Assembly: GCA_903894955.1 (NCBI GenBank)
Contig: CAITSA010000028.1
Span: 8,495 to 72,494, forward strand
Direction of reading: 5' to 3'
From: an uncultured bacterium
GTDB taxonomy: Bacteria > Patescibacteriota > Minisyncoccia > Phycocordibacterales > UBA9973
DNA: 64,000 nucleotides
Part shown: piece after piece, positions 35,219 through 47,194 of the stretch
Layout of the letters: every line of letters begins with the position of its first letter
Numbering within the stretch: the stretch's first letter is position 1
Translations under genes and position numbers: made by a program
The notes under the pieces: model-generated
Databases searched by the model: none
Seen by the model: only the letters and a program-made list of their open reading frames with translations
What the model was told of the DNA's origin: nothing

Positions 35219-35824
35219 TTAATTTTTTAACCAATAAGTTTTAATTTTAAAATCATATTTATAAACTTCGGAAGAATTGGCTTTGGAAGTATTGTCAGCG
35301 CTGACCGGATTAGAAGAAAATTCAATTGAGGAAATATCTACAATTCTAAGATTACTTTCTAGGTCTTTGGTAAAATTAATAAAATTATCATAAGTCCCTG
35401 ACGTAGAAAATTCCAAATCAAAAACCCCATAATCTTTAGATGTCGCAACCGAACCACCTTGAACAACTGGTCCAGTGGTAGTCGCATTATTGGTATCTGC
35501 TTGCGTTACGTTATATTTTACATCTTTTAAAACCATTCCATAAGGTAAGGCTATTTGCCCTATCTCTAAAATCAAACGAACGTTATCAACATTCTCCGGT
35601 AAAAGTTTCTGTAATTTTGTTAAATTATCAGGATTAATTGCATTGTATTTAGCGGTTAATTTATCCCGTTCATTTTCAAACATTTTAGAATTATCAAGTG
35701 CGCTACTGTATGACGTCACCTCTGAATTCAACGCTGAAATATCATTGTAGATGGGATTAGTGAATAGAAAAAAGAAAGTGATAGCTATGACTATTAAAAA
35801 AGTTGGCATTAAAAATCTCATCAT
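35219..35824 (-). CDS. PilO-like pilus assembly protein
   Basis: 201 aa, one TM, coiled-coil, periplasmic domain. Position in the pilMNO module. Confidence 0.5.
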   Translation of the reverse strand: MMRFLMPTFLIVIAITFFFLFTNPIYNDISALNSEVTSYSSALDNSKMFENERDKLTAKYNAINPDNLTKLQKLLPENVDNVRLILEIGQIALPYGMVLKDVKYNVTQADTNNATTTGPVVQGGSVATSKDYGVFDLEFSTSGTYDNFINFTKDLESNLRIVDISSIEFSSNPVSADNTSKANSSEVYKYDFKIKTYWLKN

Positions 35825-35828
35825 AAAT

Positions 35829-36434
35829 TTAACTTTGAGCCATCAACGTTTGCTTATAATTAATAAAACTTGGATCAACTAAAAAATCTAAATCAAAAAG
35901 CACGTTACCACTATTGTCCAGCACTAAATTTGAAAAAACAGGATCAATTAAATTTTTATTTTTAGCAAACAAATCAGATTGCAATGCAATCGAACGATAG
36001 CCAATCGCCACTCCAGACATTTTTATGTTTACTACAGTCTTATTGTCTTTATCGGTTCCTAAATCATAACTGAATTTAGTAAAACGAACACTTTTCATAG
36101 TAATTTGTTCAAGCGCCTTAAAAATTGGAATGATGGTAGTGTGCTTAGATAAAATTTCACTGGAGGCACTCAAACGCTTGTCTAATGTTTGAAGTTCAGC
36201 TATTTTTGAAGGCTCAAAACGATTTTTAGCTAAACTTAAGGTATTGTCCAAGCTGGCAATCTTTTTTACTAACATTCCTTTATAAAAATAAAGTCCACCA
36301 GTGGCGACCAATATCGTGACTAAAGCAAAAATAGAGATAATCAGAAAAAAATTAACGGGACGCGCATAAGCAATACTCTCTTCTCTGAGCATCGGTTTTT
36401 TAGGTATAAATGACGTTTGAAAATTTTGTTCCAT
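35829..36434 (-). CDS. PilN-like pilus assembly protein
   Basis: 201 aa, short cytoplasmic N-terminus, one TM, coiled-coil. Confidence 0.5.
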   Translation of the reverse strand: MEQNFQTSFIPKKPMLREESIAYARPVNFFLIISIFALVTILVATGGLYFYKGMLVKKIASLDNTLSLAKNRFEPSKIAELQTLDKRLSASSEILSKHTTIIPIFKALEQITMKSVRFTKFSYDLGTDKDNKTVVNIKMSGVAIGYRSIALQSDLFAKNKNLIDPVFSNLVLDNSGNVLFDLDFLVDPSFINYKQTLMAQS

Positions 36435-36507
36435 TGTATTTAATTATATCATAAAACAAATTTTAATGAGGTAAATTGTGTATAACTTCAACGTTTGTAA
36501 AATTAAC

Positions 36508-36741
36508 CTAATCATTAAACCACTTTTTTGCCTCTATGCCCGACTGAAGAATGATACCTTTAAAAGTTCTAGGTTTAATTGATTTTTGACCATGAAAAGG
36601 AACGCAAACATTTCTTAAAATTCCTTTTTTGTAACCTATATAATAGTAATGACTTGCATTTGTGTAATTAAGCTTAAATCCATTTCTTTTTAGAAATAAC
36701 TCTATGTCTCTAAATGTCCAGTTTGATAATCTGTTTGACAT
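36508..36741 (-). CDS. hicA: HicA-family (YcfA-like) mRNA interferase toxin
   Basis: 77 aa. FLKRNGFKL..ASHYYY...VPFHGQKSIKPRTFKGIILQSGI matches the HicA fold signature. Confidence 0.6.
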   Translation of the reverse strand: MSNRLSNWTFRDIELFLKRNGFKLNYTNASHYYYIGYKKGILRNVCVPFHGQKSIKPRTFKGIILQSGIEAKKWFND

Positions 36742-37049
36742 TACACTTTTGAAAATCCATACATATTCACCACATAAGGAGACTTAATTGGTTTTGGAGA
36801 ATGAAGAATTGACCACAATTTTTCATATTCTGGGTCAGTAGTTTGATTTAATGATTGAAATCGTGAGCCTTTTATTTTTTTGGCTGATTGTATGTATCCA
36901 TCAACAGCCTGAAGCAAGTTAAAAAAAGCAAGTTTAGGATCATCACTTGATTCAATAATATTAAATTCTAAAGCAACAGCGTACCATGTATCACCGTCCT
37001 TAAAAACGATATGTCTAAATATGCCTTTTGTCGGTGTGTTCATAAACAT
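36741..37049 (-). CDS. hicB: HicB-like (UPF0150/RNase-H-fold) putative antitoxin
   Basis: 102 aa. VFKDGDTWYAVALEFNIIESSDD is typical of the HicB N-domain. Start overlaps the hicA... ATGA junction. Confidence 0.45.
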   Translation of the reverse strand: MFMNTPTKGIFRHIVFKDGDTWYAVALEFNIIESSDDPKLAFFNLLQAVDGYIQSAKKIKGSRFQSLNQTTDPEYEKLWSILHSPKPIKSPYVVNMYGFSKV

Positions 37050-37098
37050 AATATATCATAATTATCAAAATTTTGCACAATTATTGGAACAACTATAA

Positions 37099-37875
37099 TT
37101 AATCCCTAGGCTCTTTCAAATAAGGAATTAAATGAGAGGCTATAATAAAAAGAGAAGTTGAATATGAATGATAATCTTGCCTATCATACCCTTCTTTAAG
37201 TTTACCCGTACTATCGGAACCCATAGAACCTTCATATTGAGGTACTCTACCTAAAAAAGGATCATCTTTACAATAAGTTTTATCTGACCAGCGTTCTTTT
37301 ACACTCTTCTCCATAAATTTTATTTCATTAATGAGGACAAAATACCGATAAGTCCATTCACAAATACCAATCAATTTAGATAGTTGTTTATTTCTTTTGG
37401 CAACTTCTTTTAAATTTTTAAATAAATCATCTTTTGATTCTGTAAAAGTTTCTTGAGTTTGAGAATCAAAAACATCCCAGTCAGTTGGATCATCTGAAAG
37501 ATTTCGTTTTTCATCAAGCTCAATAAATTTTTGAAATAATTCTCTTACTTTTTGATTAATTCCAATATCTTTCGTTTTTTGAGTCAAGAAAGATAATTGA
37601 ATGCGTGACTCTACTGAATAATCGTACCGGTAACCTTTTTTAATTCCTTTTTGACTAAGTCTGTGATTATGGCCAATTGCATAAATAGTACCTACATCAT
37701 CTGGGTCTAATGCAAAAGGTTCAGATGTGAACTTTCTTACCTCGTCAATTGAAGAGTTTGGTTGAAGTAAGTCGCGTAAATGTTTTCTGTCTGTTCTTTT
37801 GGATTCTTTTTCCCAATCAATATAAACTTGCTCATTGACCTCTTGTTGACTTCCAATATTTTTTTTAAATTCCAT
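37099..37875 (-). CDS. hypothetical protein (unknown function, inserted in the pilus operon)
   Basis: 258 aa acidic protein. No family recognised. Confidence 0.4.
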   Translation of the reverse strand: MEFKKNIGSQQEVNEQVYIDWEKESKRTDRKHLRDLLQPNSSIDEVRKFTSEPFALDPDDVGTIYAIGHNHRLSQKGIKKGYRYDYSVESRIQLSFLTQKTKDIGINQKVRELFQKFIELDEKRNLSDDPTDWDVFDSQTQETFTESKDDLFKNLKEVAKRNKQLSKLIGICEWTYRYFVLINEIKFMEKSVKERWSDKTYCKDDPFLGRVPQYEGSMGSDSTGKLKEGYDRQDYHSYSTSLFIIASHLIPYLKEPRD

Positions 37876-37919
37876 AATTATTTATTAAATCAAATATAAA
37901 AAATAATCAAAGTTAGCAC

Positions 37920-39131
37920 TTATTGTAATTTGCGCAATGCTAAACCTAGGGCAACCGCAAATTCAGGACCAATCGTCAAAAGAACTTTTTCTAAAAATGC
38001 TGGAGCGCTAATCTTAGAAAAAGGATGGCCAATTTCTACCTCCGCTTGAAAATTACTTATAGCCACTTCTTGTAGCCCTTTCAAGAGAGAACCTCCACCG
38101 GTAAATATCACCTTGCTAATAGTCCGATTGTTTTTCTTTTCATATCCTAATAAGACGTTATTTGTTTCAGAAAAAATATAATCTATGTGCACTTTAATAA
38201 TATCCGCTAAACTTTTTTCCATTGGATTCCCGAAAAGACCGAAATCTTTTTTCATTTTTTCTGCTTCAGGGAAAGGAATGGAAAGAGATTTAGAAATAGA
38301 ACTAGATATATCAGCTCCTCCTCTTTCGATCGTGTGATAACTCTGAACCATGCCAAATTCAACAATGGAAAGCTTGGTACAAGATGCCCCGAAATCAATT
38401 AATAAAACTGGAGAAAGCTCGTGTTCAAAATTTGCCCGAATAGAAGAAAAAATTTCAATTTCAAAAAAGGAAGTTGCGAGCTTACAACCTGAAACAATCG
38501 AACGATATTTGGAGACTACGTCATTTTGGGTCGTGACGACTAAAATATTTGTTTTTTCTTCTGTTTTGACTGGAACATCTACAGTATTCATTTCCTCAAA
38601 AGAAGATTCCTTTTTCGGTATAATGAAATAATCAATGGACACTTCGGTGATTGGAACTGGAATATATTTACGAGCTTCGATGGGAACGATAGCGGCTATT
38701 TGATCTGGACTTATTTTAGGTGGAAGTTCAATGGTAAAAATTAAACTTGATTGAATGGGAATAGAAAAAGCCGGAGAATCACTAGTAACATCAGATTGCT
38801 TGAAGACTTCTTGTAAAGCTAAAACGACTTTTTCAATAGGCAGATTGGTGACACGTCCAGCCTCGAGATCAGCATAAGGACCAAGAGCTATCACTCCATA
38901 AGTTTCCAGGACGGCTTTGTTTCCCTTTTTTTTTATTTCAACTACTTTAATGGCACTCGAACCAATATCAACACCAATAGCTGAATCTCCAGACCCACCT
39001 ACAAATTTGTTAAAATCTGAAATAATATTTTTTAATGGATTATCCATTTGTGTTAATATTGTATCATAAATGAGATTTTTAAACACCATATTAGATATAG
39101 TTTTCCCCGTAAAATGTATGTTATGTAGCAA
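37920..39131 (-). CDS. pilM: type IV pilus assembly ATPase-fold protein PilM
   Basis: 403 aa actin/FtsA-like; IGVDIGSSAIKVVE phosphate-1 motif. Confidence 0.8.
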   Translation of the reverse strand: MLHNIHFTGKTISNMVFKNLIYDTILTQMDNPLKNIISDFNKFVGGSGDSAIGVDIGSSAIKVVEIKKKGNKAVLETYGVIALGPYADLEAGRVTNLPIEKVVLALQEVFKQSDVTSDSPAFSIPIQSSLIFTIELPPKISPDQIAAIVPIEARKYIPVPITEVSIDYFIIPKKESSFEEMNTVDVPVKTEEKTNILVVTTQNDVVSKYRSIVSGCKLATSFFEIEIFSSIRANFEHELSPVLLIDFGASCTKLSIVEFGMVQSYHTIERGGADISSSISKSLSIPFPEAEKMKKDFGLFGNPMEKSLADIIKVHIDYIFSETNNVLLGYEKKNNRTISKVIFTGGGSLLKGLQEVAISNFQAEVEIGHPFSKISAPAFLEKVLLTIGPEFAVALGLALRKLQ

Positions 39132-39732
39132 GACTGGAGTGGATTTATGTTTAGATTGCCTAAAAGAAGCACCAGGAGCAGAACGTGAAAGTGCTAAATG
39201 GATTTTCCCTCTATATGATTATCGTCATCCAACTATTAAAAAATCATTATGGCTTTTAAAATACAAAGGTAAAAAGAGATTGGCAAATATTTTTGCAGAA
39301 ATTATTTATGACAAAATTCTAGAAGAACTTTCAGAATTAAGTATCTTAGAAAATTTTGTTAAGCCAATTTTAATCCCCATTCCCCTTTCACCCAAGAGAT
39401 ATCGTGAGCGGGGATACAATCAAGCAGAATTGATTTGTAAAGAATTAATAAAAATTGATAATGCACGAAATAAAGAAATAAATTTCAGCTTAGAAAATAA
39501 TATTTTAATCAAAATAAAAGAAACTGAACATCAAGCACGCATTAAAAATAGAAACGTTAGATTGAAAAATCTAATTGGCTCATTTGCAGTGAAAAACAGT
39601 GAGTTAATAAAAAAGAGAAATATAATTTTGATAGATGACATCACCACCACTGGCGCAACTTTAAATGAAGCGCGAAAAATTTTAAAACAAGCTGGAGCCA
39701 GAAAGGTCATAGCGTTCACCGTCGCACACTAA
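39070..39732 (+). CDS. comFC: ComF family phosphoribosyltransferase-domain competence protein
   Basis: N-terminal double CxxC (CMLCSK...CLDC) and C-terminal PRTase motif ILIDDITTTGAT. Confidence 0.75.
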   Translation: MRFLNTILDIVFPVKCMLCSKTGVDLCLDCLKEAPGAERESAKWIFPLYDYRHPTIKKSLWLLKYKGKKRLANIFAEIIYDKILEELSELSILENFVKPILIPIPLSPKRYRERGYNQAELICKELIKIDNARNKEINFSLENNILIKIKETEHQARIKNRNVRLKNLIGSFAVKNSELIKKRNIILIDDITTTGATLNEARKILKQAGARKVIAFTVAH

Positions 39733-39843: not shown

Positions 39844-40401
39844 TTAATAATGATATTTATCATAATCCCTAACAGCATCTACCCTCATCCCGAGTTTACG
39901 ATAGTTGCGTTGATCGAGCCTATTGGTTTTCGCATCATAGACTACCAACACTGCCCACAACAAAATGAGTATGATTGTCGCAGCTATTTCCATCCAAGTG
40001 CCGTTCCAAAAAATAACCGGCAAAAGGGTGAGCCCTAGATAACACAATAAGGGCGCAATAAAAGCATGGTGATAGCGATCCCCCCATTGCTTAGGGCAAT
40101 CATGTGCCAACCATATAATGCCAATCAATGCACCCAAAGAACCGGCAACTTGGTGGTAATCCCAACCCTGCACGAACCAGGGCAATGACGCACCACGTTG
40201 CAATATTTCGGCGGCCATCAATCCAACGACCACCAATGCACCGTCACCTAATACTGCACTATATGATGTGTTATAGTACAGCCCTTCGTACCTATCACGA
40301 AGGATAAATAATACTCCCTGCGTAGCCATGTAAAGAATTAGCGCTGTTGCCCAAATCGGCAACGCTGTCAAAATGTAATAACTTCCATGCAAATTGTTCA
40401 T
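39844..40401 (-). CDS. polytopic membrane protein of unknown function; compositionally atypical (about 45% GC)
   Basis: 185 aa, 5-6 TM. GC content well above its flanks. Confidence 0.5.
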   Translation of the reverse strand: MNNLHGSYYILTALPIWATALILYMATQGVLFILRDRYEGLYYNTSYSAVLGDGALVVVGLMAAEILQRGASLPWFVQGWDYHQVAGSLGALIGIIWLAHDCPKQWGDRYHHAFIAPLLCYLGLTLLPVIFWNGTWMEIAATIILILLWAVLVVYDAKTNRLDQRNYRKLGMRVDAVRDYDKYHY

Positions 40402-46417: not shown

Positions 46418-47194
46418 TTAGGTAAGCGGTGTTGGGATAAAACCCTCTTCATCGACCTTGTCCCCTACTTTAAACGTTCCATTGATAAAATTAAGTGATT
46501 CTCTAATTTCTTTTTCAGCCTTTATCCTATCCAAGTCACTTAAATCTTTACTCAATGGTGTTTCAATAATTTTCCTTATGTTTTCAACAGCCCTATCAAA
46601 TTTTTTAGGCATATGCCTAACTAGCCATTTAACATTATGCAAAAGGGCTACATCCCCTTTGTTCAAATACAAATCTGTATCTACTAAATAAATCTCAGGT
46701 TTTTCATCTCCCTTTTTGGTGCCATAAATATATTGCGATTCACTATTTAAATCAGCTAAATGAGCATCTTTGCTATTTAATTTATCTAAATAATATTTAG
46801 AAATTGAAACATATAAATCCTCAAGTTTCATCAAAAAATCTGGCGTTTTTTCTGCTTTTTCTAAAGCTACTCCATTAATTTTGTCGGTAACAATATAAAC
46901 TGTATCTTTGTTTTCTTCATTTTTATCAATGATTATTTTTGATGGAACTTTAATATTATAGTCTGTTTGTATTTCTTGAAATAATTTTTTACCTAAATCT
47001 ATTACAATATTAGGCTTTGCCATATTGTTATACCTATCTTCTAGTTCTTCAAAGCTATCAATTCTTATTACTTTACTAGAGTCATTATCAAATTGATAAA
47101 ATTTCCTTGTAGTGTCTCCAGTATTTAAGTCGCTCGGTACTAATTTTGAGTACAAACGGGATTGTCCTTTTTCTATGTGCATATTTTCCTTCAT
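46418..47194 (-). CDS. hypothetical protein, possible atypical kinase-like fold
   Basis: 258 aa. HLADLN and YLVDTDLY resemble the catalytic loop/DFG region of APH/Kdo-type kinases. Weak. Confidence 0.35.
   Translation of the reverse strand: MKENMHIEKGQSRLYSKLVPSDLNTGDTTRKFYQFDNDSSKVIRIDSFEELEDRYNNMAKPNIVIDLGKKLFQEIQTDYNIKVPSKIIIDKNEENKDTVYIVTDKINGVALEKAEKTPDFLMKLEDLYVSISKYYLDKLNSKDAHLADLNSESQYIYGTKKGDEKPEIYLVDTDLYLNKGDVALLHNVKWLVRHMPKKFDRAVENIRKIIETPLSKDLSDLDRIKAEKEIRESLNFINGTFKVGDKVDEEGFIPTPLT

Follow-up and report, generated by a model that had tools for sequence, protein, structure and literature searches.

Classical HicAB/HicBA toxin–antitoxin (TA) systems, such as those of B. pseudomallei (6g1c), Y. 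pestis (HicA3B3, 4p78) and S. pneumoniae (HicBA, 5yrz), pair a PF07927-type HicA toxin carrying a loop histidine with a HicB antitoxin, of which a ribbon-helix-helix (RHH) or helix-turn-helix (HTH) domain at the C terminus autorepresses the operon. A more compact arrangement, termed Class 2 hicBA, was defined by Gerdes ('Diverse genetic contexts of HicA toxin domains', bioRxiv 10.1101/2023.12.08.570793 / PMC10865869), with hicB–hicA gene order, overlapping genes, a HicB with a β-β-β-α-β fold and without a DNA-binding domain (DBD), and a HicA of 60–85 aa. Class 2 modules are prevalent, neither Class 1 nor Class 2 has been analysed experimentally, and their regulation is unknown (PMC10865869). 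HicAB has already been reported in ultra-small groundwater prokaryotes (PMC9938205). Here, we describe a hicBA pair of the compact type that lies, together with a gene for a 258-aa protein, between pilM and pilN in a 64,000-nt stretch of contig CAITSA010000028.1 from an uncultured member of the Patescibacteriota. This whole stretch, AT-rich at 34.7% GC, is hereafter called the window; all positions are window coordinates, and L-numbers designate the other contigs and genomes compared.

The original prediction for this DNA had pointed to an interrupted pilus operon. Our analysis resolves it to a compact, DBD-less hicBA cassette plus one unrelated gene in a tolerant spacer. We assign a probability of roughly 80% to this reading as a whole—i.e., that a hicBA cassette and an unrelated 258-aa passenger were inserted in the pilM–pilN spacer, with the pilus probably unaffected.

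A lineage-specific insert between pilM and pilN

The minus strand of the window holds all three open reading frames (ORFs) where they had been placed originally, and they interrupt the pilM-pilN-pilO series as claimed. From pilM to the pilN-like gene, the distance is 1,485 nt, and three same-strand genes, encoding proteins of 258, 100 and 77 aa, fill this interval. A scan of species-representative genomes with PilM identified 17 close relatives (PilM 65–82% identical); those nearest at this locus are metagenome-assembled genomes (MAGs) with the labels Candidatus Nomurabacteria, Patescibacteria or "Saccharibacteria". According to tblastn searches, comF followed by the divergent pilM-pilN-pilO-P148-pilB series is kept in 16 relatives—yet the HicA, HicB-like and 258-aa genes were found at the locus in none of these 16 syntenic relatives (tblastn, E <1e-3). 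The pilM–pilN spacing, which the original prediction had proposed to compare among related genomes, is 22–121 nt in 12 of the 16, as against 1,485 nt in the window, and thus favours insertion. The three genes are a lineage-specific insertion into the otherwise contiguous pilM-pilN-pilO series of a Nomurabacteria-type bacterium and not conserved pilus components.

The borders of the insert could be placed by nucleotide comparison. Synteny with the relatives (blastn) ends at ~37916-37899, after the pilM stop, and resumes at ~36492-36487, delimiting an insert of ~1.42 kb (36493-37916, minus strand) that reaches from the pilM stop to a conserved element upstream of pilN. This element (AGTTATACACAATTTrCTTC...TTTTGTAATATAAT) is conserved in 13 of the 16 relatives and starts at the right breakpoint. 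It is intact in the window, downstream of the insert, at 36490-36440 on the minus strand, where it reads AGTTATACACAATTTACCTC...TGATATAAT, then 8 nt, then the pilN ATG; we regard it as a putative pilN promoter. Because the right breakpoint coincides with the start of the element, the insert lies between the pilM stop and the promoter-like element of pilN. The picture of a TA cassette that had hitchhiked into a highly expressed operon therefore holds as to the insertion but is imprecise as to the operon: being upstream of the conserved pilN promoter-like element, the insert probably separates transcription units instead of splitting one. Since pilN keeps this element of its own, the pilus genes are probably unaffected. 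A search for structured RNA in the insert returned nothing near the Rfam thresholds.

A compact hicBA pair without a DNA-binding domain

Judged by its sequence, the 77-aa protein (36508-36741, minus strand) belongs to the HicA family, as had been predicted. The match to PF07927 covers profile positions 1-58 of 58 with an E-value of 7.9e-10 and 39.1 bits, above the Pfam cut-off of 27, and the protein also matches the PHROG family phrog_353, annotated as 'toxin' (2e-7). Among the anti-phage defence profiles of PADLOC, the sole match for the three insert proteins was a weak one of HicA to PDC-S18 (E 0.014). Both His31, in an N-A-S-H motif, and a VPFH motif are invariant among five aligned cassette HicAs. 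When a profile of these five was aligned with 1whz, a structure of the HicA family, VPFH matched as well, and His31 fell on the histidine of the GGH motif. The loop of B. pseudomallei HicA reads G22-S23-H24, and the mutants G22C and H24A are non-toxic (PMC3969222); the loop Ser and His are kept in the HicA of the window. The hicA gene is under purifying selection (dN/dS, the ratio of nonsynonymous to synonymous substitution rates, of 0.13-0.22 at dS 0.6-2.7). Its product would act as a ribosome-independent RNase using the conserved loop residue His31.

The hicB-like gene precedes hicA on the same strand. The mechanically called frame of 102 codons (36741-37049) overestimates its length slightly: all 38 aligned homologs begin with MNTP, so that the true start is the ATG at 37043, yielding a protein of 100 aa (36741-37043). 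The stop of this gene and the start of hicA had been described as overlapping in ATGA; the actual junction is GTG TAA TG, i.e., a TAATG arrangement with one base (36741) in common, through which hicA would be translationally coupled to hicB. The 100-aa family comprises >317 homologs with 72-94% identity, nearly all of them on Patescibacteria-labelled metagenome contigs, and the gene is under purifying selection, with a dN/dS of 0.02-0.09 at dS 0.6-2.7. One cluster of HicB-like proteins (P0030, 80% identical), on an 85-kb contig, carries the label Ferruginibacter sp. (Bacteroidota); this reflects either misbinning or a transfer beyond the candidate phyla radiation (CPR).

From a structural perspective, an AlphaFold2 model of the HicB-like protein, built on the homolog alignment, was confident (predicted local distance difference test, pLDDT, 86.1; predicted template modeling score, pTM, 0.79) and displayed the topology β(10-18)-β(21-26)-β(31-35)-α(38-58)-[loop + α 73-82]-β(93-101). 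The top Foldseek match in the PDB was the N-terminal domain of B. pseudomallei HicB (6g1c; probability 0.99, TM 0.55/0.65, E 0.046), followed by further HicB-type or antitoxin entries—3kwr, 4p78 (HicB3), 5yrz (the S. pneumoniae toxin–antitoxin complex), 3k6q and 2yzt. No DBD was detected in the protein, the single domain and an inserted helix filling all 100 aa. Taken with its constant hicA partner, the predicted fold fits the partial RNase H fold of the HicB N-terminal domain, much as the original prediction had proposed, even though profile searches failed to recover the relationship (see below). Through this fold, the HicB-like protein would neutralise HicA by direct binding.

Comparison with the described systems places the pair within a known class. 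Lacking a DBD in its HicB-like protein, it matches the Class 2 compact hicBA modules, with which it also shares the hicB–hicA order, the overlap, the partial RNase H fold of HicB and the size range of HicA (77 aa); absence of the DBD excludes the classical HicB classes and agrees with either Class 1 or Class 2. With the classical systems it has in common the PF07927 HicA with its loop His, and their HicB N-terminal domain is its best structural match. Unlike classical HicBs, however, the protein has no C-terminal RHH or HTH domain and, without a DBD, probably cannot autorepress transcription; classical HicA has Gly22 where the HicA of the window has Ala. There are also differences from Class 2 as described: the HicB is 100 aa long here, marginally above the 57-94 aa of that class (PMC10865869), it escapes the Pfam HicB-type profiles, it is more conserved than its own toxin, and the subfamily is seen in Patescibacteria-labelled contigs, bar the one Ferruginibacter-labelled cluster. 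Within the known Class 2 of DBD-less hicBA, the pair represents a subfamily that is strongly conserved and CPR-wide. One new aspect is the HicB subfamily itself—invisible to Pfam, unusually conserved across >317 clusters and marked by an invariant extra segment—which is well suited to studying the regulation of Class 1/2 antitoxins without a DBD, an open question according to Gerdes.

The pair behaves as a unit across genomes. A PF07927 gene stands directly after the HicB-like homolog in all four other contexts (L001, L002/L003, L007 and L008), and the neighbours are otherwise different: ArdC, methyltransferases and RadC in L001, resolvases in L002, CTP synthase and a DUF8173 gene in L007, and MacB and AdoHcyase in L008. 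A third conserved gene upstream of the other cassettes was considered and rejected, the upstream neighbours (nucleoside deoxyribosyltransferase-like, DUF5666-like, DUF3892 and HTH_3 genes) being mutually unrelated. At the DNA level (blastn), similarity to the cassettes of L008 (84%) and L007 (81%) is confined to 37063-36508 (~556 bp), running from ~20 nt upstream of the hicB-like start to the hicA stop, and the flanks have nothing in common beyond the ~20 nt of promoter-like sequence. Searches of mobile DNA collections found no match for the HicB-like family in IMG/VR and none for the HicB-like protein in INPHARED or PLSDB.

Promoter-like motifs at each unit

The 258-aa gene, the hicB-like gene and pilN each carry, 6-8 nt upstream of their ATG, an extended −10-like motif of the TGnTAnAAT type. 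In a motif scan, it was found as TGATTTAAT at 37884-37892 (minus strand), 8 nt before the start codon of the 258-aa gene; as TGATATATT at 37050-37058 (minus strand), 6 nt before the hicB-like ATG at 37043; and as TGATATAAT at 36451-36443, 8 nt before the pilN ATG. The second of these falls in the ~20 nt of upstream DNA common to other hicBA cassettes, in which the motif occupies the same place. Elsewhere in the window, the motif recurs before the first-in-unit ATGs at 47194, 8905, 8175, 15322 and 22517 and before that of comF at 39070 (motif positions include 47209, 8920, 8190, 15337 and 22532; 6-10 nt upstream of the starts), and spacings of 6-10 nt between motif and ATG are enriched (15 of 45 distances within 0-40 nt). 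As far as sequence can tell, this pattern points to separately promoted transcription units of the leaderless type and to leaderless mRNAs as a common feature of the organism. The hicBA cassette would be expressed in this manner, from its own extended −10 promoter and as a leaderless mRNA. No terminator-like site was found within the insert.

A direct repeat matching at 20 of 26 positions flanks the insert and was the only candidate for a target-site duplication or terminal repeat. It pairs the TGATTTAAT region upstream of the 258-aa gene with the region upstream of pilN; 0.8% of shuffles reach its score, and none of 40 other upstream regions do. Because the same motif lies upstream of both units, we attribute the repeat to promoter resemblance rather than to duplication, and the candidate was rejected in favour of a common promoter architecture.

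The pilN-upstream element contains a further short sequence, TTATACACA (36477-36485 in the window, and in the corresponding regions of L009-L025), with TTATGCACA in some relatives and two copies in tandem in L009. This sequence matches the DnaA-box consensus TTATNCACA. A role as an origin DnaA box was rejected, with six matches in the window versus 3.35 expected and no cluster; more probably, the sequence belongs to the promoter or serves as a site for a regulator.

Evidence on the other side, and a possible domesticated pair

Several observations weigh against reading the insert as a mobile hicBA cassette with a passenger and intact pilus expression. The insert holds no transposase, integrase or other mobility gene, and no convincing terminal repeats or target-site duplication surround it. 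A generic sigma-70 promoter and terminator scan did not rise above chance in this AT-rich DNA, for which reason we treat all promoter assignments as putative. The HicB-like protein had no match in Pfam, NCBIfam, PHROGs, PADLOC or PDB sequences, and neither a Pfam scan of 39 aligned members nor a comparison of the family profile with PDB sequences gave a HicB-type match. The Foldseek E-values of its model are individually weak (best 0.046), though the matches are mutually consistent. Between α1 and β4, moreover, an extra loop and helix (residues ~59-92) fall outside the canonical HicB fold and are invariant—with G61, R63, L67, N68, Q69, E74, Y75, W79, S84, S90 and P91 unchanged throughout the family; this insert accounts for the length of 100 aa. 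On the toxin side, the equivalent of Gly22 is Ala29 in the HicA of the window, Ala being found in four of the five cassette HicAs and Gly in L001. Finally, the antitoxin evolves more slowly than the toxin (dN/dS 0.02-0.09 versus 0.13-0.22), which is atypical, since it reverses the usual pattern in type II pairs.

Some of these features could be accommodated if the HicB-like/HicA pair were a domesticated and conserved CPR pair for RNA processing or regulation and not an addictive TA system. The conservation of the 100-aa partner (72-94% identity over >317 clusters, at a dN/dS that marks it as more conserved than the toxin), its invariant non-canonical insert and the Ala in place of Gly22 in HicA would agree with such a role, as would the failure to find the family in plasmid, phage and IMG/VR searches; the solved homolog 1whz (TTHA1913) was likewise judged likely non-toxic (PMC3969222). 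The distribution of the pair argues otherwise. Its spread is patchy and independent of context, including mobile-element regions with ArdC, resolvases and methyltransferases, as is TA-like rather than housekeeping-like, and the cassette is missing at the orthologous locus in 16 of 16 close relatives. The catalytic His is invariant, and the two genes overlap and are ordered in the manner of Class 2 hicBA. We therefore consider domestication very unlikely and continue to read the pair as a TA cassette.

The 258-aa gene belongs to a very rare family

Upstream of the cassette, the 258-aa gene (37099-37875, minus strand) encodes a highly charged, hydrophilic protein that is predicted to be all-α. 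It had been called acidic, but its isoelectric point of 6.27, with 45 D+E against 43 K+R, does not bear this out; the grand average of hydropathy is −0.94. Relatives are scarce. A word-indexed search with the protein yielded no sequence but its own, present on six contigs of this one organism, whereas an exhaustive HMMER search of 1.84 billion representatives brought the family to 13 proteins, four of which are full-length (31-35% identity, E 1e-30 to 7e-19). The family profile, when run through the word index, returned known members only, and a metagenome scan with a 5-sequence alignment yielded four loci. No match was obtained in Pfam, NCBIfam, PHROG, PADLOC or PDB sequences, whether by family profile or by scans of single members, nor in phages (INPHARED). 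An AlphaFold2 model from the shallow alignment was all-α, with a pLDDT of 83.6 and a pTM of 0.85; against the PDB and BFVD it gave no fold match, all query-normalised TM-scores being <0.25. The family displays conserved motifs in which D85 and S87 are invariant. All three genes of the insert appear to be real, the 258-aa gene on account of its full-length relatives and its confident predicted fold.

Family members occupy diverse genomic contexts, and none of the ~9 that we examined contains hicBA. The gene lies upstream of an rpoD-like gene in L034, beside a POR gene in L040 and between a DUF234 ATPase gene and a Fic gene in L038/L039. In L041/L042, it is found between a pilMNO cluster (~1 kb away and divergent; pilO was checked) and guaA. 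In L045, the order is murA-mreB-X-holB-frr-rseP-proS, with the family member (X) directly downstream of mreB and overlapping holB. Distant members of ~190 aa were also observed in archaeal-type neighbourhoods, one (L037, 84-659) with GINS, L44e, S27e and eIF2alpha, another (L047, 1243-1827) with PheRS and RNase P p30. The family thus appears to be common to CPR bacteria and archaeal-type, probably DPANN-like, genomes. A rare family with this span, and with a new-looking predicted fold for which no structural relatives were detected, is of interest beyond the present locus.

That the three genes form one module had been offered as an alternative in the original prediction. Read in this way, a HicB that has no DBD, and the regulation of which is otherwise unexplained, would find in the 258-aa protein the regulator, chaperone or sensor that it lacks. 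The tight packing of the three genes on one strand (a gap of 49-55 nt separates the 258-aa gene from the hicB-like gene) would suit such a module, as would their joint presence in all near-identical contigs of the same organism. Outside this organism, however, the association dissolves: no 258-family gene is present in the four other hicBA contexts, no hicBA in the ~9 other contexts of the 258-aa family, and the DNA similarity among cassettes stops ~36 nt downstream of the 258-aa gene, short of its stop codon. Each unit has a promoter-like motif of its own, and the 258-aa model has no match to an HTH, RHH or other DNA-binding fold. As hicBA and the 258-aa family occur apart in all other contexts, the three-gene module is not supported, and we hold it to be extremely improbable. 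We instead read the 258-aa gene as an unrelated second passenger, encoding a predicted cytosolic, all-α protein.

A different role is conceivable if only hicBA is selfish cargo. Three of the ~6 informative bacterial contexts place the family beside a gene for an actin-fold ATPase—pilM twice and mreB once—with the gene following pilM at a distance of 44 nt in the window, ~1 kb from pilMNO in L041/L042 and directly after mreB in L045. The protein could accordingly be a lineage-restricted accessory factor of PilM or MreB, functional in its position after pilM, and its predicted cytosolic location, confidently predicted fold and conserved motifs are in keeping with this role. Nevertheless, the gene is missing at the orthologous pilMNO locus in 16 relatives, and other members sit beside rpoD-like, POR, archaeal ribosomal or RNase P, and Fic or DUF234 genes; the association, moreover, is a post hoc one from a small sample. 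That an undescribed family restricted to ultra-small CPR bacteria and archaeal-type genomes, with its unmatched fold, acts with actin-fold ATPases and owes its place after pilM to function is, in our estimation, distinctly unlikely, and an unrelated passenger remains our preferred interpretation.

The pilM–pilN spacer receives different cargoes

The same spacer holds other DNA in related genomes. In a Nomurabacteria MAG (L011, 7208-7888), it contains a gene for a 226-aa IS200-like Y1 transposase (PF01797, 1e-7), and in L025 (482-1325) a 101-aa ORF and a gene for a DUF559 endonuclease-like protein (PF04480, 1.5e-21). In L023 (2829-3167), the spacer is occupied by 340 nt of 41% GC in which neither a convincing ORF nor an Rfam family match was found. 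Finally, a ~90-nt palindromic element lies at the pilN start codon of L017 (7226-7320), with perfect inverted ends of 13-14 nt (ATCCCGTTAGAAAT / ATTTCTAACGGGAT) and, as it appears, a flanking TGGA duplication. The 12-mer CCCGTTAGAAAT from the end of this element recurs in intergenic DNA of L014, L024, L041 and L042; the element may be a dispersed repeat of CPR genomes resembling miniature inverted-repeat transposable elements (MITEs) or repetitive extragenic palindromic (REP) sequences.

TA modules were reportedly portrayed by Makarova and colleagues, in 2009, as mobile selfish cassettes, and the hicBA pair of the window would be one of several pieces of selfish DNA that this spacer received independently, as a permissive landing site, in related genomes. 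In having different small selfish genes in one orthologous spacer, the site resembles intergenic hot spots for selfish genes in general. It differs from them in that it is a spacer of <125 nt inside a CPR type IV pilus cluster, linked neither to a tRNA gene nor to an integrase and with no recombinase associated.

Targeted, site-specific integration, e.g., through the conserved AGTTATACACAAT element, would also produce recurrent insertions. Five of 17 genomes (the window, L011, L025, L023 and L017) hold different cargo in a spacer that normally measures <125 nt, four of these five cargoes fall within the stretch from the pilM stop to the conserved element, and the 20/26 direct repeat flanks the insert of the window. 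Against this stands the nature of the cargoes—a Y1 transposase, a DUF559 gene, a TA cassette and a palindromic element—which are unrelated to one another in mechanism, and the flanking repeat is explained by common promoter architecture. Neither an integrase, nor an att-like repeat, nor a common junction sequence was found. The cluster has no other non-coding gap of appreciable size, so that tolerance is enough to account for the repeated insertions, and the gap lies upstream of a promoter-like element. Given that the cargoes share no mechanism, and that neither a recombinase nor a shared junction was found, we favour a permissive gap, and regard a targeted site as unlikely. Spacer insertions in Nomurabacteria-type genomes could inform how streamlined genomes accommodate mobile cargo.

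Neighbouring genes

The remaining genes of the cluster were assigned as follows. The pilN-like gene (35829-36434, minus strand) encodes a protein of 201 aa with an N-terminal hydrophobic stretch resembling a single membrane helix; it is 55-79% identical to proteins in the same place after pilM in 16 relatives. Because searches of Pfam and NCBIfam gave no PilN profile match, its identity follows from position, gene order and conservation. The pilO gene (35219-35824, minus strand) matches PF04350 (1.9e-5; 25.3 bits against a cut-off of 22) and is syntenic in the relatives. On the far side of pilM, a 185-aa multi-pass membrane ORF (39844-40401, minus strand) is foreign-looking in composition, with 46% GC against a background of 33-35%; its best match in Pfam falls short of significance (E 0.23).

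The pilM gene, which codes for the type IV pilus actin-like ATPase (TIGR01175, 9e-42; PF11104, 8e-35), is found on the minus strand at 37920-39047. The mechanical ORF extends to a TTG at 39131 (403 aa) and would overlap the divergent comF-like gene (39070-39732, plus strand). The true start is likely the ATG at 39047, yielding a protein of 375 aa, the length of PilM in the relatives, and the extended −10-like sequence TGATACAAT lies 10 nt before this ATG. The ATG of comF at 39070 is, in turn, preceded on the other strand by TGTTAATAT and 10 nt, so that pilM and comF, with these starts, display back-to-back promoter-like sites within ~25 nt.

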